From assembly GCF_023169545.1 (NCBI RefSeq), contig NZ_AP019769.1, forward strand, positions 120,001-152,000: a stretch of DNA of 32,000 bases. The letters are read 5' to 3'. The position numbers and the translations under genes are program-made. The notes below the pieces were generated by a model. It worked only from the letters and a program-made list of their open reading frames with translations, did no database searches and was not told the DNA's origin. This DNA comes from Nanobdella aerobiophila. GTDB taxonomy: Archaea; Nanobdellota; Nanobdellia; Nanobdellales; Nanobdellaceae. Shown here in pieces: positions 5,756 to 31,857 of this stretch (positions are counted from its first letter, which is position 1; the number at the start of each line of letters is the position of its first letter).

Positions 5756-6388
5756 CTATTTTTTCTTATAATATTCGTATACCTTTCCAACTAGATTTTC
5801 TCCAGGTTTTAGTACTATATTATTATCTTTTCCCCATTTTGCTGGGCATACCTCTCCTGGATGCGATCTTACATATTTAAATGCTCTTATTTTCCTTAAT
5901 AATTCATCAGCATCTCTACCTACATCATTTGAATTTACTTCTATACCTACAATTTTTCCATCAGGATCTATAATTATTGTAGCTCTATATGATACTCCAG
6001 ATGAGTATTCATAAACATTTAACATCTTAGCAATATTACCATTATGATCTTCACCCATTGGATATTTTATGTTCTCTAATAATTTTTCTGTTGCATGCCA
6101 CGCTAAGTGTGTATATACTGTATCTGTGGACATTGATATAACCTCTGCATTTTCTTTCTTTATTTCTTCATATTTATTGGCTAAATCTTCTAGTTCTGTC
6201 GGGCAAACGAATGTAAAGTCTGCCGGATAGTAAAATAAAACTAAAAATTTTCCTTTGTTAAGTATTTCTTTGTATATATCTATGTTTTTAAACTTTTTAT
6301 CTACTGGATCATATACATTTATTTTTAGCTCTGGTATTTTATCTCCTATCCCTATTATTTTTATTTGTTGTTCAAAATTCGCTTCCAT
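5756..6388 (-). CDS. Typical 2-Cys peroxiredoxin (AhpC/Prx1 subfamily)
   Basis: The peroxidatic motif is 'YYPADFTFVCPTE' and the resolving-Cys motif is 'GEVCPAKW' near the C-terminus. Confidence 0.92.
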   Translation of the reverse strand: MEANFEQQIKIIGIGDKIPELKINVYDPVDKKFKNIDIYKEILNKGKFLVLFYYPADFTFVCPTELEDLANKYEEIKKENAEVISMSTDTVYTHLAWHATEKLLENIKYPMGEDHNGNIAKMLNVYEYSSGVSYRATIIIDPDGKIVGIEVNSNDVGRDADELLRKIRAFKYVRSHPGEVCPAKWGKDNNIVLKPGENLVGKVYEYYKKK

Positions 6389-6456
6389 TTTAAATATATA
6401 TAATTAAATTTAATAAATATAATTTTGGTACGGAGTTCGTTCTATTTATTATAAAA

Positions 6457-6888
6457 TTAGTATACTTTTTCTATATTTATAGCAGGCCAAATCTCTTTTA
6501 TATCTTCAATCTTTTTTATCTCTTTTATATAATTTTCTAGTTCTTTTTTATCTCTGTAAATATATTCTATAATTATATCATGATCTCCGTAAGTTAGATA
6601 TATACCTTTTATATTATCATCCTTTGGTATCTCATCTATAATATTTATTATCTTATTTTTTTCTACATTTAATCCAATCCAAGAAACATTATATCCTAGT
6701 ATACTGTAGTCTAGAATTACACAAAAACCTTTTATTATATTATTTTTTTTTAATTTATTTATTCTCTTCCTTATAGCACCTTCAGATAATCCTATTCTTC
6801 TGGAAATTTCCATATTTGAAATTCTTGAATTTTTTTCTAATAATTTTAATATTTTTATATCTATATCATCAATTTTTTGTTTTTTCAT
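6457..6888 (-). CDS. Lrp/AsnC family transcriptional regulator
   Basis: The N-terminal HTH 'IDDIDIKILKLLEKNSRISNMEISRRIGLSEGAIRKRINKLKKNNIIKGF' is followed by a C-terminal RAM-like domain. The length is about 143 aa. Confidence 0.88.
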   Translation of the reverse strand: MKKQKIDDIDIKILKLLEKNSRISNMEISRRIGLSEGAIRKRINKLKKNNIIKGFCVILDYSILGYNVSWIGLNVEKNKIINIIDEIPKDDNIKGIYLTYGDHDIIIEYIYRDKKELENYIKEIKKIEDIKEIWPAINIEKVY

Positions 6889-6931
6889 AATAAGAAATAT
6901 ATTAGAAATTTTTTAAAAATTTACAATTTTC

Positions 6932-6956
6932 GAACTATAAATTTAAAAAATAGTTC
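6932..6956. promoter_or_regulatory. Inverted repeat GAACTAT-N11-ATAGTTC in the divergent lrp/bcp intergenic region (candidate operator)
   Basis: Perfect 7-bp arms were read directly from the sequence. The repeat lies 15-40 nt upstream of the bcp ATG (6971) and 44-68 nt upstream of the lrp start (6888). Confidence 0.3.
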
Positions 6957-6970
6957 TATATTATATAGTT

Positions 6971-7414
6971 ATGGATAAGGTAAAAGATTTTGAGGCTGAC
7001 ACAACAAAAGGTAAAATGAAATTATCAGATATATTAAAGCAAAGAGATTTTGTGGTAGTATATTTCTATCCAAAGGCCTTTACTTCTGGCTGTACACAAG
7101 AATTAAAAAGATTTGTAGAGTTATATGAAGAATTTAAGAAATTAAATACAGAAATATTGGGAGTAAGTAATGACAGTCTTGATACTCAGAAAAAATTTGC
7201 AGAAAAATATGGGGCGGAATTTCCATTAGTAGCAGATAAAGAATTAAAAATAATAAATACGCTAGGTGCAAAGAGTGAGAGGGGCCAGGGTGCTTCAAGG
7301 ATAACATATATAGTAAATAAAAATATGGAAATAATAGAGACATTAAAATCTTTACCAAATGCAAAGGAACATGCAGATAAGTCTCTAGAAATTATAAAAA
7401 GCCACAAAAAGTAG
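6971..7414 (+). CDS. bcp: Bcp-type peroxiredoxin (thiol peroxidase, apparently 1-Cys)
   Basis: Motifs 'VVVYFYPKAFTSGCTQE', 'GVSNDSLDTQKKFAEKY' and 'FPLVADK' match the family. No second Cys lies 5 residues after the peroxidatic Cys. Confidence 0.88.
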   Translation: MDKVKDFEADTTKGKMKLSDILKQRDFVVVYFYPKAFTSGCTQELKRFVELYEEFKKLNTEILGVSNDSLDTQKKFAEKYGAEFPLVADKELKIINTLGAKSERGQGASRITYIVNKNMEIIETLKSLPNAKEHADKSLEIIKSHKK

Positions 7415-15454: not shown

Positions 15455-15527
15455 TTATCTATTAGTGGTAATCAATTTTAATCAATATAACAAAATTTTA
15501 TAAATATTGTTGATATATCATTATTTC

Positions 15528-18500
15528 ATGGAAAAGCATTCGAAAGGTAAGAATAGATATAAGTCTTTTATGATGAGAGGTAAGACAATATCAGCTATAG
15601 GAGCAATGGCAGCATTAGGACTGGCAATATATTCGCAATCTGGACAACCAACAATAGGTCAATTAGCACAAGCAATGAAAGCACAACCATCTGCATGGAC
15701 AGTAGTAGTAGGAGCAAATGCAAAGGCATCTGATGTTGTAGGAGCTTCTAATATAGTTGCAGCATTAGAGACCTTCACATCTGTACCAACAAATATGACA
15801 ACAAATCAATCTAATTTACAAGTACAAATACAAGGAACAATTCCTGTAATACAAAATTCATATCCATTATATTATCCATCAGAACCATTATACTTGGGAT
15901 ATAATTTAAATAGTGTAGTAAATGTATTATCTGTAGGTTCAGGTACATTCCAAACAAATTACAATGGACAACAAACTACATATCAATATAATGCATATGT
16001 ATATCCATCAAATCAATATTCTATACAATATATAGAACCAACACCAGGACAAAGTCAACCAGTTGTATCATTAGCAGCAACTGGTCCAACAGCAAGTCCA
16101 ATTTCATTAAACTTAACATTCTCACCATCCTTAAACTTAACTCAATTAACACAATCTCCACAAGCAATTAATATATTTAATACAACATATTATATGGTCC
16201 CAGCATCCAATGGTCAATATATTAACTTTGTTCCAGCTGCAGATGTAGTAACATTAAATGTAAATCAATCAACAACCTTTAATGGTGTACAGATAACATT
16301 ACAAGGTGTAACAGCACAATACTCTGCAGGTTCTACAACTTCAACTGGTGTACCATCAGCAGTATTAAATATAAATGGTCGAACTGTAACTGTACAAGTA
16401 GGTTCACAAGAATATGTAGATGGAATTAATGTATTAGTTGTAAATGTATATGGTCCATTATCAAATGAAGTTACTACAACACAACAAGGTTATGTAGAGT
16501 TAGTATTGGGTAATTCTGGATATCAATTACCAATAACTTCAACACCAGCAAATGTACAAACATCAAGTGGACAAGTATTAAATAATGTACAAGTACAGAT
16601 GACATATACAACATCTGGAAATGGTTATTTGATATCAGATATAGCATTCTTATTCCCACAATTGCCAGAGATTGGAACTTCAGGATATTATGGATTAACA
16701 AACGGAGCAGTATATCAATTACCATTATTTAATTATGAATTAACATTCCCATCTGTTACATTACCAGCAAAGAATTCTGATTTAATACAAGTGCAATCTT
16801 CATTAGTAACTCAAGGCAGTAATAGCTATGCAAATCAATTTACATTATCATATCCAGATGCATTATCAGGTAAGACATATACATTAAGTATATATAATAA
16901 TGATCCTTCATCACCATCTAACGGTGTGTTACAAGCATTCCAGCAAGGATATGTACAGAGTTTAAAAGAATATACTAATTCATTGACAACAAGTACTACA
17001 TCTACATATCAATCTGCTGCATTAACACCAACAGTAGGAACAGTTATATCCATTACTAATACTAGTTCTGTTACATCTTATTATTATATTGCAAATGTAT
17101 CATCAAGTAATGTTATTTTAGTAGGTTTACAAACAGGACAAGTTTATAATGTAAATTCTGGGGGTGCAACATTAAGTGATGGTGTAAGTGTAAAATATAG
17201 TGGCGGTACATTAACATTTAATTCACCAAATGGTCAATACTTTACTAGTCAAACATTTACTGCAGGTACTAATTATAATTATCCATATTATGCAGGTCAA
17301 TTAACACCAGGAAGTCAAACAAGTGCATTTGTATTATATCCAGGACAATACTTCGCAGTATATAATCCAACAACACAAACGTCAGAAATATTCTATTTAC
17401 AAGATGTGACTACAGGAACAAATAATGTACCACAAGCTACAATAGAAGATGTAATAACAGGACAAACATATACAGTAAGTCAAGGAAATCCAATAGTTGT
17501 AGATAATGGTATATCTTTAGATCCAATAATAATAAATACACAAGTACCATATGTTATATTGCAGGGAAGTGGAACTATATCAATGAATAGGTTAGTATTA
17601 ACATCAATGGGTACAAGTCCACAATCAACACCAATGATAAGTATAACAGGTTTGGGTACACCAACGGTAAATATAGGAGTTCAAGATACGTACCCCGGAT
17701 ATACATTAGTAAATGGATCAACACTAGGTACATCTGTTAGCCTAACATTAGGTGTAACTGGAGGTTTAGCAAATCCAACATTTGACTATACAAACCCAAC
17801 TTCAACATCTGTAACATCCGGATCTACAACAACAACATATTATTTAGATAAAGCAGGAACATATAGCGTATATACATCATCAACAGGAGCACAAACATTA
17901 TCACTATATGTACCAATGGTACCTGTATCATATGCAGTATCTATAGCTCCAGTAGGCTCACAGTCGCAACAAGAATCTGTAAATGTAGGTATAGGACAAA
18001 TAATACCAGGAACATCATTAACAGTTGAAGGAGTAACAGGAGCGTCATCAACAACAACAACTTACTCAGCACCACAAGCATTAATAGGAAATGTAATATT
18101 AACAAGTCAGGTAAATGCAAATAATATGAATAATATGGTATTAGTAGGCGGTCCAGCAGTAAATACATTAACAGCACAAGCAGTTATAAATTGGGTATCA
18201 TCTGAAAATTCAACATTAGGATCAGAATTGCAATCATTGGCATCTTCACAAGGTGGATTAATATATGGTTCACAATTAGCACCAGTATTACAACAATTAG
18301 GAATAACATTTGAACCAGGAACAGCATTAGTATTCACATCAACATTAGCACCAAATTCATTGGTAATATTTGGATGGTATGGTAATGATACAACAGAAGC
18401 AACACAAGTATTTGCAAACTATCTAGTTAGTGGTGTAGATTCATCAGTATTTAATAATGCAACATTAGTATGGATAAATGATCAGCAAACATCTGTATCC

Positions 18501-18530
18501 GGTCAACCAACAGTACAAGCAATACAATAA
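15528..18530 (+). CDS. S-layer / major surface glycoprotein candidate
   Basis: It has a signal-peptide-like 'MMRGKTISAIGAMAALGLAIYS'. The N-terminal 'WTVVVGANAKASDVVGASNIVAAL' and C-terminal 'NMVLVGGPAVNTLTAQ' resemble the conserved ends of euryarchaeal S-layer proteins (S_layer_N/S_layer_C type). The protein is about 1000 aa, T/S/Q/N/G/V-rich, has no Cys and very few K/R/E, and carries many N-x-S/T sequons. ATG 15528 is preferred to the track's TTG at 15507; ATG 15570 is also possible. Confidence 0.8.
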   Translation: MEKHSKGKNRYKSFMMRGKTISAIGAMAALGLAIYSQSGQPTIGQLAQAMKAQPSAWTVVVGANAKASDVVGASNIVAALETFTSVPTNMTTNQSNLQVQIQGTIPVIQNSYPLYYPSEPLYLGYNLNSVVNVLSVGSGTFQTNYNGQQTTYQYNAYVYPSNQYSIQYIEPTPGQSQPVVSLAATGPTASPISLNLTFSPSLNLTQLTQSPQAINIFNTTYYMVPASNGQYINFVPAADVVTLNVNQSTTFNGVQITLQGVTAQYSAGSTTSTGVPSAVLNINGRTVTVQVGSQEYVDGINVLVVNVYGPLSNEVTTTQQGYVELVLGNSGYQLPITSTPANVQTSSGQVLNNVQVQMTYTTSGNGYLISDIAFLFPQLPEIGTSGYYGLTNGAVYQLPLFNYELTFPSVTLPAKNSDLIQVQSSLVTQGSNSYANQFTLSYPDALSGKTYTLSIYNNDPSSPSNGVLQAFQQGYVQSLKEYTNSLTTSTTSTYQSAALTPTVGTVISITNTSSVTSYYYIANVSSSNVILVGLQTGQVYNVNSGGATLSDGVSVKYSGGTLTFNSPNGQYFTSQTFTAGTNYNYPYYAGQLTPGSQTSAFVLYPGQYFAVYNPTTQTSEIFYLQDVTTGTNNVPQATIEDVITGQTYTVSQGNPIVVDNGISLDPIIINTQVPYVILQGSGTISMNRLVLTSMGTSPQSTPMISITGLGTPTVNIGVQDTYPGYTLVNGSTLGTSVSLTLGVTGGLANPTFDYTNPTSTSVTSGSTTTTYYLDKAGTYSVYTSSTGAQTLSLYVPMVPVSYAVSIAPVGSQSQQESVNVGIGQIIPGTSLTVEGVTGASSTTTTYSAPQALIGNVILTSQVNANNMNNMVLVGGPAVNTLTAQAVINWVSSENSTLGSELQSLASSQGGLIYGSQLAPVLQQLGITFEPGTALVFTSTLAPNSLVIFGWYGNDTTEATQVFANYLVSGVDSSVFNNATLVWINDQQTSVSGQPTVQAIQ

Positions 18531-20297: not shown

Positions 20298-20564
20298 TTA
20301 ATATATTATTTTAAAATCTTTATATTTCTGATCTTTTATTTCTATTTCATCTATTTTGTCCACTCTAGCTCTTTCAGGCCCCCTCTTACACAATTCAATT
20401 ATATTATATATATCCATTTGATTTCCTTCAAATACAGCTTCTACAGTTCCATCTGGATTATTTTTTACATATCCTTTTATATTATATCTTAATGCATTTC
20501 TATATATAAAATTTCTAAATCCAACTCCCTGTACTTTTCCATATATTATAACCTTCTTTGCCAT
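20298..20564 (-). CDS. acyP: Acylphosphatase
   Basis: The signature is 'IIYGKVQGVGFRNF', followed by 'GYVKNNPDGTVEAVFEG'. The length is 88 aa. Confidence 0.9.
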   Translation of the reverse strand: MAKKVIIYGKVQGVGFRNFIYRNALRYNIKGYVKNNPDGTVEAVFEGNQMDIYNIIELCKRGPERARVDKIDEIEIKDQKYKDFKIIY

Positions 20565-20705
20565 AAATTTTATTTATAGAAAAGTTTTAATTCGATAATT
20601 TTTGTTTAAACTTTTTTTATTATTTAAAAATTACTTTAAGATTGATTTTATTATATAATATTTAAAAGTTTTACTTTATAATAATAGAAATCATGGAAAG
20701 TCGGA

Positions 20706-22058
20706 ATGTATAATTTTATGATGAAAGAAACATATATAAAAGATATTTTAAAAGAAGATTTAGTTGGAAAGGAAGTTTCTATAAAAGGTTGGGTTTATAG
20801 AATGAGAGATATGAAGGATAAGGTATTTTTCGTAATAAGAGATCCTACAGGCATAATACAAGCAGTTGTAAAAAAAGATAATGTTAATGAGAATATATGG
20901 AATGATGCCCTAAAGTTTCAAATTGAGGGATCTCTAGAATTGAAAGGAATATTAAAAAAAGATGAGAGGGCACCTACTGGGTACGAAATAGAAGTAAAGG
21001 ATATAAAAGTATATGATTATGGGCAACCATTTCCATTAAAGGGAGATGAAGAGATAGATACTATACAAAAATATAGACATTTATGGATAAGAACAAAGTG
21101 GTTTGTAGATATATTAAAAGTAAAACACAGTTTGTTAAAAAATTTAAGAGAGTGGTATATAAATGATGGATGGTATGAGGTGCAACCACCAATCTTAGTT
21201 GGTAATGCGGCAGAAAATACGACAGAATTATTTGAAGTAAAATACTTTGATCAAAAAGCTTATTTATCGCAATCTGCACAATTATATTTAGAAGCATTGA
21301 TATTTTCTCTGGGGAAAGTATATTCTTTAACACCATCGTTTAGAGCAGAATTTTCTAGAACGAAAAGACATTTACATGAATATTGGCATTTTGAAATTGA
21401 GGCTGCTTGGTATCATTTAGAAGATCTAATAAAAGCAGTAGAAGAATCATTAAAATATTCTATAGAAAAGACAATAGAAGAGAGAAAATCAGAATTTGAA
21501 GATTTAAAAAGTATAACTGGTAGAGATATTAAAGAATTAAAAGATTTTGTGGAAAAACCATGGAAAATATTAAAATATGAAGATGGAATTAAAAAATTAA
21601 AAGATTTAGGCATAAATATAAGATACGGAGACGATCTGGGATCTGATGAGGAAAGAATATTAACTCAGCAATTTGATGTACCAATATTCTTGACATATTA
21701 TCCAAGAGAAGTAAAAGCATTTTATATGTATGAGAATGGTGATGGAACAGTAAAAAATTTTGATCTATTAGCACCGGAAGGATATGGAGAAATTATTGGT
21801 GGATCTGAAAGAGAATGGAGATATAATATTTTGGATCAAAAAATAAAAGAGTGGAAATTAGATTCATTAAAGATAGAAGTTGGCAATGAAGAAATTGATG
21901 CATATGAATGGTATAAAGATTTAAGAAGATATGGTTCAGTACCACATTCAGGGATGGGACTCGGTCTAGAAAGATTTACAAGATGGATATGCAAAATGGA
22001 TCATATAAGAGATACCTTGGCATTCCCAAGATTAAGAGGAGGCTGGCTATATCCATAA
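20706..22058 (+). CDS. asnS: Asparaginyl-tRNA synthetase (class IIb)
   Basis: It is collinear with archaeal AsnRS: 'AYLSQSAQLYLEALIF', motif 2 'SLTPSFRAEFSRTKRHLHEYWHFEIEAAW', 'LAPEGYGEIIGGSERE', 'YEWYKDLRRYGSVPHSGMGLGLER' and 'FPR..LYP'. The start may be Met5/Met6 (20718/20721). Confidence 0.93.
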   Translation: MYNFMMKETYIKDILKEDLVGKEVSIKGWVYRMRDMKDKVFFVIRDPTGIIQAVVKKDNVNENIWNDALKFQIEGSLELKGILKKDERAPTGYEIEVKDIKVYDYGQPFPLKGDEEIDTIQKYRHLWIRTKWFVDILKVKHSLLKNLREWYINDGWYEVQPPILVGNAAENTTELFEVKYFDQKAYLSQSAQLYLEALIFSLGKVYSLTPSFRAEFSRTKRHLHEYWHFEIEAAWYHLEDLIKAVEESLKYSIEKTIEERKSEFEDLKSITGRDIKELKDFVEKPWKILKYEDGIKKLKDLGINIRYGDDLGSDEERILTQQFDVPIFLTYYPREVKAFYMYENGDGTVKNFDLLAPEGYGEIIGGSEREWRYNILDQKIKEWKLDSLKIEVGNEEIDAYEWYKDLRRYGSVPHSGMGLGLERFTRWICKMDHIRDTLAFPRLRGGWLYP

Positions 22059-22090
22059 GTTTTTAAATATTCTTTATATTTTTATTATAT

Positions 22091-22474
22091 ATGGGTAGCT
22101 ATTCAAAAGATGAACTGAAGATATATATTGATATAGATGTTGTAAAAGGAAAGGAATTAAATGAACTTTTAGAATATATACTTAATAGTTATAAACCATT
22201 AGATGAAGTAAATAAAAGTTTATTTAATCAGTTTAATAAATATAAAGGTTCTGTAGATTATATCGTAGAGAATATTAATAGGCTAGAGGTAACTGCAGGT
22301 ATCTATAAATTAGAGTGTAGTAAGCTTTTTAGAGATCATTCATTAGACTATTATAAGTGCTATTTTAAAGTTAGTGGAGGGAAAACTCTCGATTCAAAAT
22401 GGATAAAAGCAGGTTCTTTATCTTCGCTGTTAGAAACATATATTAAGGAACTGAAATCTATTTATAACCAGTAA
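22091..22474 (+). CDS. Hypothetical protein
   Basis: This is a 127-codon ORF with a convergent 17-nt overlap with the next gene. No recognisable motif was found. Confidence 0.45.
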   Translation: MGSYSKDELKIYIDIDVVKGKELNELLEYILNSYKPLDEVNKSLFNQFNKYKGSVDYIVENINRLEVTAGIYKLECSKLFRDHSLDYYKCYFKVSGGKTLDSKWIKAGSLSSLLETYIKELKSIYNQ

Positions 22475-23111
22475 ATATCTCTATAAATATATTTTTTATA
22501 TTATTTTCTTTCAACATCCTAAGCATAGATATAGAAAAGTTGGTGGATCCACATATATAGAAATCATAAGAATCTAGATTATTAATATATTTTTTTAATA
22601 ATTCCATGTTTATATGGCTGTTTTCATAGTTATCTACCTTTTCTCTTGTTATAGTTAATATCAGATCTATCTTTGATTTTTTTAGTTCATCTAAATATAC
22701 TGCATCTTTAAAATATTTTACAGAATAGAATAATTTTATATTATAATCTAAATTGTTTTTTACAATATATCTTATATCTGATAAAAATGGTGCAATACCT
22801 ATCCCGCCTGCAATCATTACTATATTTTTATTCTTTTTTAATGATAGATTACCGCCATATGGACCTTCAATATATACAAGATCTCCTTCTTTTAAATTTC
22901 TCATATTTTTCTTGTAATCACTCTCAGATAAAGTAGAAATTATAGATATACAATTATCAGTAGGTATGGAAATTATAGAAAATTCCCTAAGTTCATTATT
23001 TATATATAACCTTATGAACTGTCCCGGTATAAAGTCTATTACCTTTTCGAATCCCAATTCTATAATATTATCATTTAGTAATTTTTTGTATATTACTTTA
23101 GCCTCTTTCAT
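22458..23111 (-). CDS. FNR-like FAD/NAD(P)-binding oxidoreductase (ferredoxin reductase-type; no Fe-S cysteine cluster seen)
   Basis: The FAD-binding region 'PGQFIRLYI...REFSIIS' contains the R-x-[YF]-S motif, and the NAD(P)-binding region is 'IVMIAGGIGIAPFLS'. The internal Met at 23111 ('MKEAKVIYKK..') fits family N-termini better than the track start at 23171. Confidence 0.7.
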   Translation of the reverse strand: MKEAKVIYKKLLNDNIIELGFEKVIDFIPGQFIRLYINNELREFSIISIPTDNCISIISTLSESDYKKNMRNLKEGDLVYIEGPYGGNLSLKKNKNIVMIAGGIGIAPFLSDIRYIVKNNLDYNIKLFYSVKYFKDAVYLDELKKSKIDLILTITREKVDNYENSHINMELLKKYINNLDSYDFYICGSTNFSISMLRMLKENNIKNIFIEIFTGYK

Positions 23112-23373
23112 AAAAATTCTATATTTTATAAAAGCTTTATATTTTTTATAGAAGGATTGGAATATATGCAAAGACTTTTGAGAATTACATTAGTATAGAC
23201 ACCTTTTCAGCATTTTCTAGAGTAATATTAAATTTAACATTTATATAGAGAACTTTACTACTGTTTTAAATGTAAATAATTTTTTATTATATAATTTTTA
23301 TTGATATTTTAGTTTATATCTTTATATAGTGATTATTAAATATATAGAAATTTATAAAAAATGTTTACTGTGA

Positions 23374-23408: not shown

Positions 23409-23666
23409 GTGAACATAACTGAAATACTGATACTGATAAGACAAAAGAATGAATTAAATTATATTTATTCACAAGAATTATTAGATAGAGAATATCATAT
23501 TGATATAAATACAGATATTATAAAAGTAATAACTGGCATTAGAAGATCTGGTAAAAGTACTTTAGCATTATTATCATTAAAAGATAAAAATTTTGGATAT
23601 ATAAATTTTGATGAAAGAGAGCTATTAAATTTTAATTTAACAGATATAGAAAATCTTATTTTTTGA
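23409..23666 (+). pseudogene. N-terminal remnant (85 codons) of a Walker-A ATPase of the AAA_14/DUF4143 (COG1373-like) family
   Basis: It has a GTG start and the Walker A motif 'GIRRSGKST'. It is collinear with residues 1-90 of the intact copy at 25601. It stops before the expected Walker B (DEIQ), and downstream sequence does not continue the protein in any frame I could read. Confidence 0.7.
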
Positions 23667-24130
23667 TGGAATACATATCCTAGATGCCCCGGGGTTCTGC
23701 TTTGGAGGTTGAAAAGGTATGTGGTAATAATATAGATGATGGAAACAATTTATATCCTGTTTTTTAAGATTATATAATTATTTGAAAGATTTTCCTGCTA
23801 TTAAAATAAACTATAGATCAGAAAGTGTATTTAATAAATATAATATCAGGTTATTGTTCGGTTTTAAATATAATGGTTCTAATATTTATTAACTTTAATT
23901 ATATCATATAAATATTTTAATTATATATTTTTTTTAGGATCGATAAATATCAATGTGCTAATTTTTATATCCATTGTTTCTACATAGTATTATTAGAATA
24001 AATCCTTTTTTCAATGCCAAATTAAATAATATCTTTGGATTAAACTCTTTAATAGTAAAATTCCTTATAAAATTATAATTTATAAATATCTTTGGATTAT
24101 AAATCCAGATCATTTATAAATAGTTATTGA

Positions 24131-25303
24131 ATACAATTCTATATAGGTATACTAAAAGATATAACTTATGATTATGTAAATTCATCAAAATATATAAAAG
24201 AAATAAAAAGGAATATAGAAATAAAAGAATCCTTAGATATAATCGCATTAATAGGACCTAGAAGAGTAGGAAAGACAACAATTATGCTAAAAAAAAAAGA
24301 ATTATTAGAAAATGATGAACAGGCTATTTATGTTTCTTTCGATAATCTATATTTATTCAATTTAGATATAAGGAAATTTGCCTAGATGATAAGATCTGAA
24401 TATCCAGAAGGAAAAGTATATTTATTTTTAGATGAGATTCAAGAGTGGAAGAATTGGGATTATAATATAAGGTGGTTGCATGATGTAAAGGACTTTTTCC
24501 TATATATATCCGGGTCTTCTTCTACTCTTCAGTCTTCTGAAATTCCAACAAAATTAAGGGGAAGATATATTTCAAAAATTATTTTTCCAATATCCTTTAA
24601 AGAACTTATAAATTTTGAAGTAGAAGATTTTAGGCATATTGGAAAGATATACAATTTATTAGAAGAATATATAAGATGGGGAGGATTTCCGGAACTAATA
24701 TTATATAAAGATATTGAGAAATTAAATTCTTTATTAGAAACAGTATTTTATAGAGATATAATTGAAAGAAATAAAATAAGAAATATTGATGTATTCAGGA
24801 TAATATCTAGATTTATTTTATCTAATTATTCAAATACTTTTACATATAATTCATTAAAAAATTATTTGAGGTCTTTTAATATAAATATAGATGTAAAAAC
24901 AATAATAAAGTACATTGAGGCTATGAGAAAATATTTTTTATTATTTACTTTAGAGAGGTTTTCATACTCAGAAAAGAAAAAGTTGATTTCTCCCAAAAAA
25001 ATATATTTAATTGATACTTCTTTTACAAGTATATTTAATCAAGGAGAAGATATCGGAAGAAAAATGGAAAATATTGTTTTTATTGAGCTATTAAGAAGAG
25101 AAAATTATTTACCAGAAGAAAATATTTTAATAGAAGTAACTTATAGTATAGATAAAGAACATGAGAAAAAAGTATTGAGTGCTATGTATGAATTAAAATG
25201 TAAAAATAGTATAATAATTACTTGGGATTATGAGGATAATAAAACAATAAACAATTTAAATATTAAATTTATTCCTTTATGGAAATGGCTACTAAATTTA
25301 TGA
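24131..25303 (+). pseudogene. Disrupted AAA_14/DUF4143-type ATPase copy (no usable start, in-frame TAG, internal deletion)
   Basis: One frame reads '..IALIGPRRVGKTTIMLKKKELLENDEQAIYVSFDNLYLFNLDIRKFA-TAG-MIRSEYPEGKVYLFLDEIQEWKNW..'. There is no ATG/GTG/TTG between the upstream stop (24128-24130) and codon 24284. The TAG lies at 24383-24385. The C-terminal domain lacks the block corresponding to 'IDNIYYFHTNEGYEIDFLIKEGNN' of the intact copy. Confidence 0.75.
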
Positions 25304-25600
25304 GTATATTTAAGCTATGAAAATAATAAAAATAACCAGATAGGCAATAAAATTTATTTTTAGTTATAGTGAATTTTATTCCATCAAAATCCTTTAATAT
25401 ACTTATAATTCATTTCTAAAATTTCCAGGCTGTTCATTATAATTATTTTACTCTTATATATAATACAAAACTATAATATAATTAATTTGATCCGTATATG
25501 GAAGGGAGATTCATTAAATTAATCCTATTGGGATTAAAAAATTCATAAAAATTGTTCCTTTAAGACACAATTTATATAACTTTTAATTAAATAATATATT

Positions 25601-26842
25601 ATGATCGAAGATTATCTAATAGGTGTAAAAAGAGAAATTAATGAATTAAATATATATCCTAGAGAATTAGAAATAGATGTTGAATACCCTATTGCAATTA
25701 TAGGTCCAAGAAGATCTGGTAAAAGTTTTTATTTATACTATTTAATAAAAAAATTAAATTTAAAAGAAGATGATTATTTATTTGTAAATTTCGAAGAATA
25801 CGAAATAAAAAATGTAAATTTTTTAGATATAATAAATAAACATATAGAAATATATAAGAAAGAACCTAAATACATTTTTTTAGATGAAATACAAAATTTA
25901 AATAATTGGCAGGATTTTTTATATTCATTAGTAGAGAGGAAAAAATATAAAATAATTATAACAGGTTCTTCATCAAAATTATTATCGAAAGAAGTTGCAA
26001 CAAATTTAAGGGGTAGATTCATTAGTAAAATATTATTACCATTATCATTTAGAGAATATTTATCATTCAAAAAAGTAAATATAATAAGACCTTTATACGA
26101 TAAAGAAATATCAAAAATTAAAGGATATTTATATGATTATTTAAAAAATGGGGGATTTCCCGATATTATATTAGAGAAAGTTAATAAAAAAGAATTTATA
26201 AAGGAATATATAGATATATTATTATATAAAGATTTTATTGAAAGATATAAAATTGAAAATATTGAAGTTGCAAGATTTTTGTTATACGCATTAATCCAAT
26301 CTAATAGTAAAATTTTATCAGTAAATAAAATTTATAATCAATTAAAGCAAATAACTAGAGTCAGTAATAAAACAGTAAGGAAATATATTTATTTATTTCC
26401 TGAAACTTTATCCATATTTTTATTAAAAAAATTTTCTTATTCTATTAAGAAAACATACTTGTCGCAACCAAAGATATATTTATCAGATATATCTTTAGAT
26501 CAAGAAGAGAATGGTATTGGTAGAAAAATGGAAAATATAGTATTCTTAGAGTTTATTAGACAAAATTTAATTGATAATATTTATTACTTTCATACAAATG
26601 AGGGATATGAAATAGACTTTTTAATTAAAGAAGGAAATAATATAAAACAATTAATACAAGTATCATATATTAATAATTATGATGAAATAGATAAAAGAGA
26701 AATAAGATCATTATTAAAAGGATATAATTTATTTAATAAACCAGAATTATTAATTATAACTTGGGATTATGAGGACACAAAAATTATAGATAATGTAAAT
26801 ATTAAATTTATACCTTTATATAAGTGGTTATTAAATATATAA
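25601..26842 (+). CDS. AAA_14/DUF4143-type ATPase (COG1373-like), apparently intact
   Basis: Walker A is 'GPRRSGKSF' and Walker B is 'YIFLDEIQ'. 'ITGSSSKLLSKEVATNLRGR' also matches the family. The C-terminal restriction-endonuclease-like region is 'GYEIDFLIKEG..IKQLIQVSY', ending 'IITWDYEDTKIIDNVNIKFIPLYKWLLNI'. Confidence 0.88.
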   Translation: MIEDYLIGVKREINELNIYPRELEIDVEYPIAIIGPRRSGKSFYLYYLIKKLNLKEDDYLFVNFEEYEIKNVNFLDIINKHIEIYKKEPKYIFLDEIQNLNNWQDFLYSLVERKKYKIIITGSSSKLLSKEVATNLRGRFISKILLPLSFREYLSFKKVNIIRPLYDKEISKIKGYLYDYLKNGGFPDIILEKVNKKEFIKEYIDILLYKDFIERYKIENIEVARFLLYALIQSNSKILSVNKIYNQLKQITRVSNKTVRKYIYLFPETLSIFLLKKFSYSIKKTYLSQPKIYLSDISLDQEENGIGRKMENIVFLEFIRQNLIDNIYYFHTNEGYEIDFLIKEGNNIKQLIQVSYINNYDEIDKREIRSLLKGYNLFNKPELLIITWDYEDTKIIDNVNIKFIPLYKWLLNI

Positions 26843-27116
26843 TAATTTTGATAAATTTAATATCTCTAAAGCTCATATTGAAATAAAAAATTATGAGAAT
26901 TGAATCAAAAAACTTTTTTGAACAAGCTATGACTTGAAAAAATTCACCAAAAGTTATCGCTATATTAGGTATATAATAAAGAAGCAATAGAGTTAAAAGA
27001 ATGGATAAAAGAGTAATTGAGATAAAAGATAAAATTAAAGAAAAACTAGAAGATTTCTAATCATGTATGTTTATAAATGAAAGGTTTCTTATGCTGTAAA
27101 AGAAGATATAGAGATA

Positions 27117-28091
27117 TTATAAATTCTCTTTAAACTCTTTTGCAGTTTCTTCAGGAATTGAAGATATTATATATTCTAGGTGTCCGATTTCCATATATCC
27201 TATATCAAATAAAGGCCTTTGTAATAATCTAATTATAGGGAAGGTTCTAGAGTCTTTTAGATATGTAGTATCAAATATAACCATATTAAAGTTTTCATAT
27301 AATCTTTCATAAGTTACTAAAATATTATATAATTCTTCAATAAACTTTTCTAGATTATTTTCTGATAAGAAGTATATACCAAATGATTCTAAGTAGCCTA
27401 ATAATTCATTATTTCTAAATGGTGCAAAAGAAGCCCATAATTTTATTATATCATCCATAATTATTCTTTGATTTAGTTTTTTTTCAAAATTAAAATAATC
27501 CTCTATAAAAAATTTTTTATATTTTTCAAAATATTTCTGAGATTTATTTAGATAGGTTTTAAAATAATTTGTTGGTTCCTTTTCCAATAATATTTGTAGA
27601 TGTAAATGTTCTTGTGATGCACCTGCTGAAAATCCTTTATTCATATTTATAAATATATATTTATATTCCTTTTCCGGTACTTTTTCATAAAATTCTTTTA
27701 TTAATAGAAAAGAATTATATAGATCTAGTTTATTCAATTTTGCTATATTTTTTATATGTTTTTTGTAATTTGGTACCAGTACAGCATGATATCTACCATA
27801 TGGATATTTATTAGAAAATAATATTGAATCTCCTAAACTAATTTTTTCCATAAATTCAAAATCCGGGGTATTCTTATATGGATCGCAAAAATAACAGATA
27901 TTATTTTTTTTACTTATATTTTTATAATTTCTAGGTTTATATTTTATAGATTTATTTATTCTAATTTTATAATTTGTAATAGGATCATATCTTTCTTCTA
28001 TTATATATCTTTCAATATTGTTATTAAAAAAATTTCTTGATTCATATTCATAGCTTATTAATTTTAAATCCTCGTTAAATACTTCTTCCAT
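27117..28091 (-). CDS. GalT-like nucleotidyltransferase/phosphorylase (galactose-1-phosphate uridylyltransferase family, HIT superfamily)
   Basis: 'RYDPITNYKIRINKSIKYKP' and the zinc-site-like 'CYFCDP' match the family, as do 'ILFSNKYPYGRYHAVLVPNYKKH' and 'FINMNKGFSAGASQEHLHLQIL' (H-x-H-x-Q active site). Confidence 0.8.
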   Translation of the reverse strand: MEEVFNEDLKLISYEYESRNFFNNNIERYIIEERYDPITNYKIRINKSIKYKPRNYKNISKKNNICYFCDPYKNTPDFEFMEKISLGDSILFSNKYPYGRYHAVLVPNYKKHIKNIAKLNKLDLYNSFLLIKEFYEKVPEKEYKYIFINMNKGFSAGASQEHLHLQILLEKEPTNYFKTYLNKSQKYFEKYKKFFIEDYFNFEKKLNQRIIMDDIIKLWASFAPFRNNELLGYLESFGIYFLSENNLEKFIEELYNILVTYERLYENFNMVIFDTTYLKDSRTFPIIRLLQRPLFDIGYMEIGHLEYIISSIPEETAKEFKENL

Positions 28092-28948: not shown

Positions 28949-29814
28949 ATATTTCTATAAGTTCTTTGTTATATATAAATTAAATCTTGATCTATAGTAT
29001 TAATGGTTATTTAATAATCTAGTATTGTTGAGATCATATCCTATAATGCTGTTTATATCTACCGATAAATAGTTTATAAACTTTGAGGTTTGAGCTAAAT
29101 AGAGTATTAGATAATATAAGTCCTTCAATAAATATCATCCATTTTTTATTTTTAGGTAAAAATTTATATTTAGTTGCATTATTAATAATTTTATCTAAAG
29201 ATTTTATTATTTTAAAATGTATTATTTTAACTTTATAAATAATATTAAACGAATCTTAATTTATTTTTTATTTCTTTTTTATTTAAAATGAACTATTAAA
29301 TTTTATATTTTTTGTATTATTTACAGGAAGGATTATATTCTTAAAGATATTGGAAAATATTATATTTGCAATCATTATGATCTCAATATATACAATTATG
29401 CTAGTTATGAATAGGCTATAACCATGGAACTTTCAAGATAGATCATTTTATCTCCAGAAAATAATTTAATACTATCAAAACCAAAGAATATACTTCAATA
29501 ATAAATATATATCTAAATATTGTTTCTTCTTTACTGCCTGTAGATATTTTACCTTTTAAATGAAATATATCCTATAATTAGAAAAGTATCAGAAAAGTAA
29601 GACAAGAGAATCATCGTCCAAAAAATATTGTTCTGCGAAGAGAATATGTTTTAAATGATTTATACAAAACTTTTTTTACTATCGAATTTCTTTTAAATAT
29701 AATTTTATCTAGAATCCAGATGGATAATTAATCGTTATTTAATTCCTTTTAATGAAATTTTTTAGAATATTTTAAATTATATAATTTAAAAATTTCAAAA
29801 TTTATTAATTATTT

Positions 29815-30057
29815 ATGATTACTACAATTACAATATCAAAAGAAATAAAAGAAGAAGTAGAAAAGGTTAAAGGAAATAAAAAATGGGACGAATTTTTAAT
29901 GGAGTTGATTAACATTTATAAAGAATATAAAAAAGAGAAAATAAAAAATTTATTAAATGAAGTTAAAAAAGATATAAATAATGAAGAACTAGATAAAATA
30001 GAACAAGAAATATTACAGTTAAGAAGAAATAATAATTTTAGGGATTATAAAATATGA
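29815..30057 (+). CDS. vapB: VapB-like antitoxin candidate
   Basis: The N-terminus 'MITTITISKEIKEEVEKVKGNKKWDEFLMELI' resembles small archaeal antitoxins ('TITISDEVYEKL..KG..SFSEVI'). There is a 4-nt ATGA overlap with the downstream PIN gene. Confidence 0.6.
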   Translation: MITTITISKEIKEEVEKVKGNKKWDEFLMELINIYKEYKKEKIKNLLNEVKKDINNEELDKIEQEILQLRRNNNFRDYKI

Positions 30058-30419
30058 ATATACTTGATACATCTTTTCTAATTGAATTAATAAGAAATAA
30101 TAATTTGCAAGATTATATTGATAATTATATATCTATAATAACATTGGAGGAGATTTTAAGAGCATTAGATAAAAATAAAAGACAAAAGATTAAAGAATTA
30201 TTAACAAATGCATTAAGTATAATTAATATAGATCAGGAAATAGTTGAAATTTATTCAGATATATTTTATACATTAAAAAATAATGGAAAAATTAAAAATG
30301 ATGCAGATATTATCATTTCTGCTACTGCAATTAAATATAATACAGAAATATTGACAAAAGATAAAGATTTTATAGATATAAAAGAATATTATCCAGAATT
30401 AAAAGTTAAAATTATTTAA
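30054..30419 (+). CDS. vapC: PIN-domain ribonuclease toxin (VapC)
   Basis: 'MNILDTSFLIEL' carries the first acidic residue, 'TLEEIL' follows, and 'NDADIIISATAIKYNTEILTKDKDF' carries the third and fourth. The length is 121 aa. Confidence 0.85.
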   Translation: MNILDTSFLIELIRNNNLQDYIDNYISIITLEEILRALDKNKRQKIKELLTNALSIINIDQEIVEIYSDIFYTLKNNGKIKNDADIIISATAIKYNTEILTKDKDFIDIKEYYPELKVKII

Positions 30420-30624: not shown

Positions 30625-31857
30625 TTATATTTTTACTAAATTTATTATATCATTTACATCTAATACTTCAATATTTTCTGGATAATATTCTAGATTATTT
30701 TTATTAGGTAATATTAATATCTTTCTACAATTAAATTTATTTAATTTATTTTCTATTTCTTTTATCTCATTTTTATCAATATAATCTTTCCATTTTACTT
30801 CTCCCACAATTTTTAATTCTTTAAATTTAAATAATGAAATATCTATTTCATAATTTTTTTCAACTATCTTATAATAATTTAATCCATAAATCTTTGATAA
30901 TAAGGAATTAAAGAAATATTCAACATGGAATGGTATTTTATCATTTACTACTTCTTTTATTATTTCATAGACTATATCATTTTCCGATATTCCATATTTA
31001 CCTTCTAAATAAAAATATATATCTAATAATGGAGAAGAAATTATATAATAATCAAATTTTTTATTAAATACATTTATTTTATTTATTAAACCAATATTTT
31101 GTAATATTTTTAGATAACTTTGTATTATACTTGGATCATCTTTTTCAATTATTTTCTTAGAAAATAAATATGAAGATATTTCAGTAGATTTATTTTTTCC
31201 AGATGCAATTGATGTTAAAATATTGATATATGTTTTATTTAATTCTCTTTCTTCTTCATTAAATATTTCTCCTATTAAACTTTCAAATGTATACTTATTT
31301 TCTTTAAATATTCTTGCTAATTCTTCTCTTATATTTCCTTTTACAAAATCTATTATCCATGGTTCTCTAAAATATATTGCTTTTTCTATTAATTCTTTTC
31401 CATTTTCTTTATCTATTAAATATTTTATTATATCTCTTTCATCAATTAAATCTATTCTAAATTCTTCAAACAATCCTAATAGTGGTGAATGCTTTTCTAA
31501 AATTTTTTTAGATAAAAATAATGTAGAAGTAATTAATATAAGATTTATTTTTTCATAATTCGCATGTATAAAATCTAACAAATCTTCTTGTAATCTTTGA
31601 AATTCATCTATAACAACTTTTTTTCTAGATAATAAAATATCTTTTAAATAATCATATGATATATCCTTATTATTTATTATATCTATTATTCCTCCATCTC
31701 TTTTTATAAAGAAATAATAATCATAATTTGTAAAGTTTTTAATAAAAAAAGATTTACCAGTTTTTCTTCTTCCATAAACGAAAACTCTATTACCAATTTT
31801 TTCCCATCTTTTTAGATCTTCATATCTAATAACTATATTCATCATATGTATAATCAT
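30625..31857 (-). CDS. Archaeal ATPase (Arch_ATPase/ATPase_2 type, COG1672-like) with a C-terminal DUF234-type nuclease-like domain
   Basis: Walker A is 'VYGRRKTGKSFF' and Walker B is 'VVIDEFQRL'. The C-terminal 'YEIDISLFKFKELKIVGEVKWKD' has the canonical D...E-x-K arrangement. The start may be Met5/Met6. Confidence 0.85.
   Translation of the reverse strand: MIIHMMNIVIRYEDLKRWEKIGNRVFVYGRRKTGKSFFIKNFTNYDYYFFIKRDGGIIDIINNKDISYDYLKDILLSRKKVVIDEFQRLQEDLLDFIHANYEKINLILITSTLFLSKKILEKHSPLLGLFEEFRIDLIDERDIIKYLIDKENGKELIEKAIYFREPWIIDFVKGNIREELARIFKENKYTFESLIGEIFNEEERELNKTYINILTSIASGKNKSTEISSYLFSKKIIEKDDPSIIQSYLKILQNIGLINKINVFNKKFDYYIISSPLLDIYFYLEGKYGISENDIVYEIIKEVVNDKIPFHVEYFFNSLLSKIYGLNYYKIVEKNYEIDISLFKFKELKIVGEVKWKDYIDKNEIKEIENKLNKFNCRKILILPNKNNLEYYPENIEVLDVNDIINLVKI

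Follow-up and report, generated by a model that had tools for sequence, protein, structure and literature searches.

How did a minimal genome come to hold three adjacent pieces of the same kind of ATPase gene, two of them broken? The question is raised by a 32,000-nucleotide (nt) stretch of DNA from the archaeon Nanobdella aerobiophila (contig NZ_AP019769.1, positions 120,001 to 152,000), hereafter the window, with a G+C content of about 22%. Between positions 23409 and 26842 it carries, all on the forward (+) strand, a 5′ fragment (copy 1), a near-full-length pseudogene (copy 2) and an intact gene (copy 3). A sequence-only reading of this DNA had proposed that they are three copies of a single gene, produced by local duplication and caught at successive stages of decay. 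The family turns out to be a known one with many copies, and its pieces to be unremarkable relics left at a variable locus; we consider it probable that they descend from different old lineages of that family, the fragments and the alike tails having arisen by recombination between paralogues. What is modestly new is that gene conversion acts on a single module of otherwise diverged, dispersed paralogues, as we describe for two very small archaeal genomes.

Three segments of one protein family

Both the homology of the three segments and the position of every feature assigned to them by the sequence-only reading were borne out by Pfam profiles and by a check of the open reading frames (ORFs). 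All three belong to the AAA_14 plus DUF4143 family (COG1373, PADLOC candidate PDC-S01), and the two profiles named in that reading were indeed recovered. With the Pfam gathering cut-offs at 27 bits for AAA_14 (PF13173) and 28.1 bits for DUF4143 (PF13635), AAA_14 was found in copy 3 (123.1 bits, E 9.8e-36), in two parts of copy 2 (60.3 and 34.9 bits) and in copy 1 (34.0 bits, E 3.4e-8), and DUF4143 in copy 3 (66.1 bits, E 4e-18) and copy 2 (50.3 bits), copy 1 being devoid of such a part. The Walker A and B motifs read GPRRSGKS and IFLDEIQ in copy 3 and GPRRVGKT and LFLDEIQ in copy 2, and copy 1 has Walker A only (GIRRSGKS); residues G35, G40, K41, D95 and E96 are invariant across 232 homologues.

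The description of copies 1 and 2 as degraded and of copy 3 as intact also held up, judging by the lesions and the ORFs. Copy 3 (25601-26842, +; Walker A at 25703-25726, Walker B at 25874-25894) is an intact 413-codon AAA+ ATPase gene, the product of which is identical to BBL45346.1 of N. aerobiophila, a species with a genome of 0.67 Mb (contig of 668,961 bp). It appears to be under purifying selection, and it matches the PADLOC model for PDC-S01, PDLC04787, at 3e-85 over model positions 28-408 of 412.

In the AlphaFold model of copy 3 (pLDDT, the predicted local distance difference test, 90.7; predicted TM-score, pTM, 0.90), the AAA+ core is accompanied by a helical lid and a winged-helix region, and the C-terminus forms an alpha-beta-beta-beta-alpha-beta unit. 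None of the solved structures is related to copy 3 by sequence, and a whole-chain Foldseek comparison placed at the top the DNA-bound Orc1/Cdc6 (2qby, E 3e-8), clamp-loader subunits and Avs4/Avs5, at TM-scores of 0.26-0.39. The likeness to Orc1/Cdc6 initiators and to STAND/Avs NTPases extends over the AAA+ core, the lid and the winged helix; Orc1/Cdc6 proteins differ in having no counterpart to the C-terminal nuclease-like domain, and the TM-scores are low. As modelled, the family protein is predicted to be an AAA+ ATPase resembling Orc1/Cdc6, equipped with a winged helix and, at its C-terminus, a PD-(D/E)xK-like domain.

PDC-S01 is known from the literature as a fusion of an ATPase with a PD-(D/E)xK domain, very common and enriched in archaea, which qualifies as a “guilt-by-embedding” defence candidate with validation pending, and DPANN archaea are reportedly enriched in such single-gene defence candidates (PMC12988326). 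DUF4143/COG1373 was included in a survey of the PD-(D/E)xK superfamily as a family of unknown function (PMC3424549). Copy 3 agrees with these descriptions in its full-length match and in the order of its parts, an ATPase followed by a PD-(D/E)xK-superfamily domain (PMC12988326, PMC3424549). It differs from them in belonging to an archaeal clade which has no Lys of the (D/E)xK motif and mostly Gln at the acidic position; moreover, two of the three copies found here are broken. Every sequence test places the genes in the family, with the single exception of the canonical catalytic motif, which is missing from the clade as a whole. A viral origin of the family genes was also considered and is unlikely, as only one relative was found among 2.9 million viral contigs.

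The copies are not each other's closest relatives

If one gene had been duplicated in place, as the adjacency of the pieces, their common strand and family, and the similar extreme C-termini of copies 2 and 3 might suggest, the closest relative of each copy would be expected inside the array. This is the case for none of the three. Copies 2 and 3 are 36% identical in protein (BLASTP), and the value is again 36% when only the part before the YEIDF block is compared; on average, about 0.5 of their third codon positions are identical, which is approximately the level of unrelated paralogues in DNA as AT-rich as this. Far closer relatives are found elsewhere. The nearest relative of copy 3 is protein P0002 of the cultivated Nanobdellota archaeon YN1, with 80% identity overall and 83% in the N-terminal part, and the N-terminal part of copy 3 is 41-48% identical to those of other N. 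aerobiophila paralogues. Copy 2 is closest to another YN1 protein, P0122 (60% overall, 66% in the N-terminal part), its next relatives being proteins of Thermoproteota, Archaeoglobus, Thermococcus and Sulfolobales at 42-58%. Copy 1 is 90.1% identical over 81 amino acids to the N-terminus (residues 1-79) of BBL45721.1 (P0240), a full-length paralogue of 412 residues that N. aerobiophila encodes at a different site, and falls into a common 90%-identity cluster with it. Since the closest relatives all reside at other loci or in another genome, the array is to be seen as three old lineages that have accumulated in a single place.

Nor can the distance between copies 2 and 3 be put down to decay after duplication: had an amino-acid divergence of about 60% built up by neutral decay, tens of stop codons would be expected in 390 codons at 22% G+C, and copy 2 has one. 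Taken together with the third codon positions at background level and the closer relatives at other sites, this makes the proposed local duplication-and-decay series highly improbable. No remnants of family genes were found in the spacer between copies 2 and 3 or downstream of copy 3.

The spot where the three lineages meet is flanked by genes that are syntenic with a locus of YN1 (L007): an acylphosphatase, asparaginyl-tRNA synthetase (AsnRS, 84% identity), an NAD-binding oxidoreductase (65%) and a HIT-like gene (75%), located at 20301-23171 and 27117-28091 of the window. Between these flanks, YN1 carries different genes and one family member in the opposite orientation. The flanks are conserved and the content between them is wholly different, indicating that this is a variable spot. 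The best YN1 relatives of copies 3 and 2 are situated at two other YN1 loci, one of which is packed with HEPN/nucleotidyltransferase pairs and contains two more family genes.

Concerted evolution of the C-terminal module

The last 78 codons of copy 3, from the YEIDF block to the end (26606-26842, +), have a history that differs from that of the remainder of the gene, and form a candidate tract of concerted evolution. The protein encoded by this module is 95-97% identical to the corresponding part of the N. aerobiophila paralogues P0010, P0067 and P0240, and 76-77% identical to YN1 proteins. Overall, module identity amounts to 95-97% within N. aerobiophila, 89-99% within YN1 and 73-80% between the two genomes. 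The N-terminal part displays the reverse pattern, with 35-53% identity between paralogues versus 83% for the orthologue pair.

In YN1 the process can be followed in the DNA itself. Two family genes on one YN1 contig (Ya and Yb; L001, 6039-7355 and 10001-11257) are 97-98% identical in nucleotide sequence over their last approximately 95 codons and 55-70% identical over their first approximately 340 codons. In the module, 90-93% of the third codon positions agree, and the synonymous divergence (dS) is 0.10 versus 0.67 upstream; the switch between the two regimes is sharp, and falls at the YEIDF codons. The YN1 tract was also seen to continue for about 80 nt past the stop codons (L001 7341-7440 and 11243-11340), into the 3′ ends of overlapping convergent HEPN genes. 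From these comparisons, gene conversion appears to keep the last 80-95 or so codons of dispersed paralogues nearly identical, with the YN1 pair displaying it at the DNA level.

Concerted evolution by gene conversion is known for duplicated tuf genes and for rRNA operons. The present case resembles them in that paralogues within a genome are more similar than orthologues between genomes, and in that synonymous sites are homogenised up to a sharp boundary; it differs from them in that only the 3′ 240-290 nt or so are affected, in genes that are dispersed and otherwise 35-50% identical.

In N. aerobiophila, an independent assembly provides a further indication. Logan contig L004, 3065 bp long and built from run DRR287719, matches the window at 100% identity over 23571-26635. 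Its start is 30 nt before the first codon at which copy 1 and P0240 differ (23601, Ile versus Val), and its end, 26606 + 29, is 30 nt into the module of copy 3, position 26606 being the first base of Y336. Logan assembly uses k = 31, and breaks 30 nt from both boundaries are therefore as expected if both regions are exact repeats in a k = 31 graph.

The near-identity of the C-terminal ends of copies 2 and 3, an argument for local duplication, was confirmed as an observation: the two proteins agree at 23 of their last 30 positions, and a 99-nt stretch with 79% nucleotide identity includes exact runs such as ACTTGGGATTATGAGGA. However, T387, W388, P405, L406 and W409 are invariant in the family, and the ITWDYE and PLWKWLL blocks are conserved, so that the likeness of the two tails would mostly reflect family-wide conservation, to which a short conversion tract may add. 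By hand count, the copy 2 tail shares 23 of 30 residues with the N. aerobiophila module and 18 of 30 with that of its orthologue, which hints at an old and short conversion tract.

When the 78-residue module was used as a query by itself, the matches listed were short proteins of 70-129 amino acids, and the known full-length carriers were not among them. Tail-only relics of the family occur in other archaeal genomes too. On a metagenomic contig (Ga0209739_100239; L008, 5001-5300), a stand-alone ORF of 99 amino acids consists of the module alone, is 73% identical to the module of copy 3, and directly follows a MazE-PIN pair. YN1 also has a decayed family member (L003, 6001-7137), in which tblastn covers query residues 32-411, with an ORF of 250 amino acids (6385-7137) and a C-terminal module of the YN1 type.

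Lesions of copy 2

Copy 2 (24131-25303, +) is a pseudogene of the “IEVTY”-type subfamily, with YN1 protein P0122 as its nearest intact relative, and retains its Walker A (GPRRVGKT, 24254-24277) and Walker B (LFLDEIQ, 24422-24442) motifs. Alignment with P0122 and 77 other intact relatives reveals exactly three disabling changes and no frameshift. The start codon is lost, with ATA in place of ATG at 24149-24151 and no ATG, GTG or TTG in frame before 24284. The frame is open save for a single TAG at 24383-24385, at which point the relatives have a conserved Glu. Just after 25105, copy 2 has four residues where P0122 has 19, which amounts to a net in-frame deletion of 15 codons (45 nt) that takes out the KEIDF beta-strand with the conserved Asp found in 231 of the 232 relatives. 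Recoding of the TAG could be ruled out, as TAG terminates five of the 32 ORFs in the window and the codon aligns with a conserved Glu.

Apart from these three changes, copy 2 is well preserved. Pfam recognises AAA_14 before the TAG (E 1.8e-8), and AAA_14 (E 2.6e-16) and DUF4143 (E 2.9e-13) after it, the DUF4143 match being confined to profile positions 2-124 of 160; the ORF matches PDLC04787 at 1.3e-74. Of the 81 alignment columns with a conservation of 95% or more across 78 relatives, it keeps 72, and the deletion accounts for four of the nine losses. Random DNA of 22% G+C is estimated from its base composition to have about one stop per eleven codons; the 390 codons of copy 2, with a single stop and not one frameshift, were therefore under selection until recently.

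Could the lesions of copy 2, along with the truncation of copy 1, be errors of sequencing or assembly? The family is repetitive, and repeats are prone to misassembly. The independent Logan contig, however, contains all three lesions of copy 2 in a sequence without a single difference from the window, and thus they are no artefact of one assembly. Besides, no two of the three lesions are of the same kind, the deletion leaves the reading frame intact, and copy 2 lacks the shared repeat module. We regard such errors as a most improbable cause of what is seen.

A 305-codon ORF inside copy 2 (24386-25303, +) begins with an ATG right after the TAG; it has neither Walker A nor the strand with the Asp, and is annotated in GenBank as a coding sequence (CDS), BBL45345.1. 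This ORF, the ORF of copy 1 (the annotated CDS BBL45343.1), or both, might still be used as short proteins that modulate the intact paralogues, for instance by joining their oligomers. The presence of both annotations, the ATG directly behind the TAG, the retention of most conserved residues in copy 2 and the occurrence of stand-alone C-terminal ORFs of the family in other genomes would all be compatible with this. Yet the 305-residue product would be made without a P-loop and without the strand bearing the Asp of 231 out of 232 relatives, copy 1 stops at its breakpoint and is devoid of the elements that would complete the fold, and there is no evidence that the short forms are conserved as a class. 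Such use is unlikely.

Copy 1 and an additional relic upstream

The ORF of copy 1 (23409-23666, +) opens with GTG and runs for 85 codons; it corresponds to the 5′ part of a family gene, with its Walker A motif (GIRRSGKST) at 23535-23561; it is annotated as BBL45343.1 (MJ1_0170). Its homology to BBL45721.1 ends at 23651, and no C-terminal remainder could be found in any frame of 23667-24130. A possible continuation in frame +1, KILFFDGIHILD (23650-23685), is similar to the ILFLDEIQNYD of P0240, in which case about 32 nt would have been lost in a frameshifting deletion; we do not claim it, because, when aligned as DNA with the Walker B regions of copies 2 and 3, it did not rise above the shuffled background.

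At the point where copy 1 homology ends, the spacer, otherwise at about 20% G+C, has a G+C-rich patch beginning with ATGCCCCGGGGTTCTGCTTTGGAGGTTG (23683-23730, +). It was found in no other fetched locus except Logan contig L004, itself a copy of this region of the window. A search for RNA in the spacer between copies 1 and 2 gave no Rfam match even at E <= 1, and its folding did not surpass that of shuffled sequences (z = 0.15).

About 50 nt before copy 1, positions 23304-23358 (+) hold a further piece, overlooked by the sequence-only reading, which we call copy 0. It was seen as a direct repeat (D8) and aligns locally to 26799-26855 at the end of copy 3, with a score of 61 as compared with a mean of 31.7 (standard deviation 4.2, maximum 48) for shuffled sequences. 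These 55 nt cover the last 14 or so codons, the stop and about 13 nt beyond it of another AAA_14/DUF4143 member, with the frame broken by two 1-nt indels and a TGG-to-TGA change, and represent the last trace of that gene.

Origin of the array

According to the reading that we favour, accretion of old lineages combined with recombination, members of the AAA_14 plus DUF4143 family would accumulate between the AsnRS and NAD-binding oxidoreductase genes on one side and the HIT-like gene on the other. Gene conversion would homogenise the 3′ ends of the paralogues, with the rest of each gene staying diverged, and the gene fragments and alike tails would be by-products of homologous recombination among the paralogues. 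Copy 2 would have been inactivated fairly recently in this sequence of events, through two G-to-A/T point mutations (at the start and from Glu to TAG) and the 45-nt deletion.

Several points weigh against parts of this reading. In N. aerobiophila, conversion at the DNA level is suggested by protein identity and by the contig breakpoints, and the tail of copy 2 resembles the N. aerobiophila module only modestly more than that of its orthologue, which makes a conversion tract in copy 2 uncertain. The direction of events at copy 1 may be either of two: it may be a partial duplicate of P0240, or a remnant of the gene from which P0240 was copied. The dN/dS ratios (0.26 for copy 2 versus P0122, 0.17 for copy 3 versus its YN1 orthologue P0002) are rough, because dS is near saturation. 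In a relative-rate test, copy 2 had 57-65 unique changes as compared with 29-36 in P0122 (p 0.001-0.02), but we do not take this excess as a sign of relaxed selection on copy 2, since it is not specific: copy 3 shows a comparable excess relative to P0002 when either of two outgroups, out of three, is used. Finally, the family protein is a suspected single-gene defence candidate, and no evidence presented here bears on antiviral function.

A bolder version would turn the family into a cassette-like system, in which a constant nuclease-like effector tail, the same in all paralogues, is combined with diverse ATPase/sensor heads that are shuffled or replaced through recombination in the tail, with the fragments (copy 0, copy 1 and copy 2) serving as donors. 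We consider this very unlikely; if it were true, it would allow a symbiont with a genome of 0.67 Mb to diversify a defence protein at little cost.

A conserved non-canonical site in the nuclease-like domain

The sequence-only reading had also drawn attention to LIQVSY in copy 3 (26651-26668), in the place of an E-x-K nuclease motif, and took it for a possible alteration of this particular gene. The observation itself is right. In the model of copy 3, the core elements (helix 306-320, strands 327-331, 337-344 and 347-354, helix 365-377 and strand 382-387) follow each other in the order of a PD-(D/E)xK fold. D339 lies on the second strand, and the third has Q353-V-S355 in copy 3 and E-V-T in copy 2, so that the Asp of the canonical site is present in copy 3 and the (D/E)-x-K is not.

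There is, however, nothing peculiar to copy 3 in this. The position of the Lys is occupied by T, S, C, A or V in the 232 full-length homologues, with Lys in none of them, and the preceding acidic position by Gln in 156, Glu in 72 and Asn in four. LIQVSY is the norm of the clade rather than a defect, because not one of the 232 homologues has the Lys, and the “IEVK” consensus named in the sequence-only reading does not apply to this clade. The alignment argues for a conserved non-canonical site and against decay of the copy 3 gene. E311, E337 and D339 hardly vary at all, and the strongly conserved E391 is found in 218 of 232 homologues; as E311, E337 and E391 are so nearly invariant, an unconventional catalytic site is possible.

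A fourth relative and other neighbouring genes

A fourth, more distant relative was overlooked by the sequence-only reading. It is located on the opposite strand of the window (30625-31857, −) and encodes BBL45351.1, a protein of 410 amino acids annotated as “archaeal ATPase”, with 25.5% identity to copy 3 over 388 amino acids in tblastn (E 4e-11) and the same layout of an ATPase and a nuclease-like domain. It has a canonical EID...GEVKW (D...ExK) motif, and in Pfam it matches only AAA_14 (2.5e-6), with no match to DUF4143 and none to PADLOC PDC-S01. In its AAA+ ATPase and C-terminal PD-(D/E)xK-like domain, as well as in its annotation, it resembles the archaeal ATPases with DUF234 (COG1672). 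It differs from copy 3 in that the canonical D...E-V-K is kept and the shared C-terminal module is absent.

Beside this ATPase gene, at 29815-30419 (+), an ORF of 80 amino acids overlaps by 4 nt a 121-residue PIN gene (Pfam PIN, 5.5e-14), forming a VapBC-like toxin-antitoxin pair. The preceding 0.87 kb or so (28949-29814) contain no ORF of at least 60 amino acids on either strand, which is unusual in a dense genome. Further upstream, a 1007-residue ORF with a TTG start and an S-layer-like domain (Pfam S_layer_C, 2.7e-10) at 15507-18530 (+) lies in the most G+C-rich part of the window.

Implications for the family and its host

Two of the genes discussed here are entered in GenBank as ordinary CDS and not as pseudogenes, BBL45343.1 as hypothetical protein MJ1_0170 and BBL45345.1 as AAA+ superfamily ATPase; both are better treated as gene remnants. 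Conversely, what looks odd in the motif of the intact gene is typical of its clade and no sign of damage. Our knowledge of the function of the family is unchanged by these findings, but the conserved acidic residues in the absence of a catalytic lysine pose a concrete question for the biochemistry of PDC-S01. As for the organism, its 0.67-Mb genome holds at least four full-length copies of a defence candidate, along with several relics. Since gene conversion appears to pass 3′ ends between the paralogues, homologous recombination would be active, and would be shaping this family, even in a minimal symbiont.

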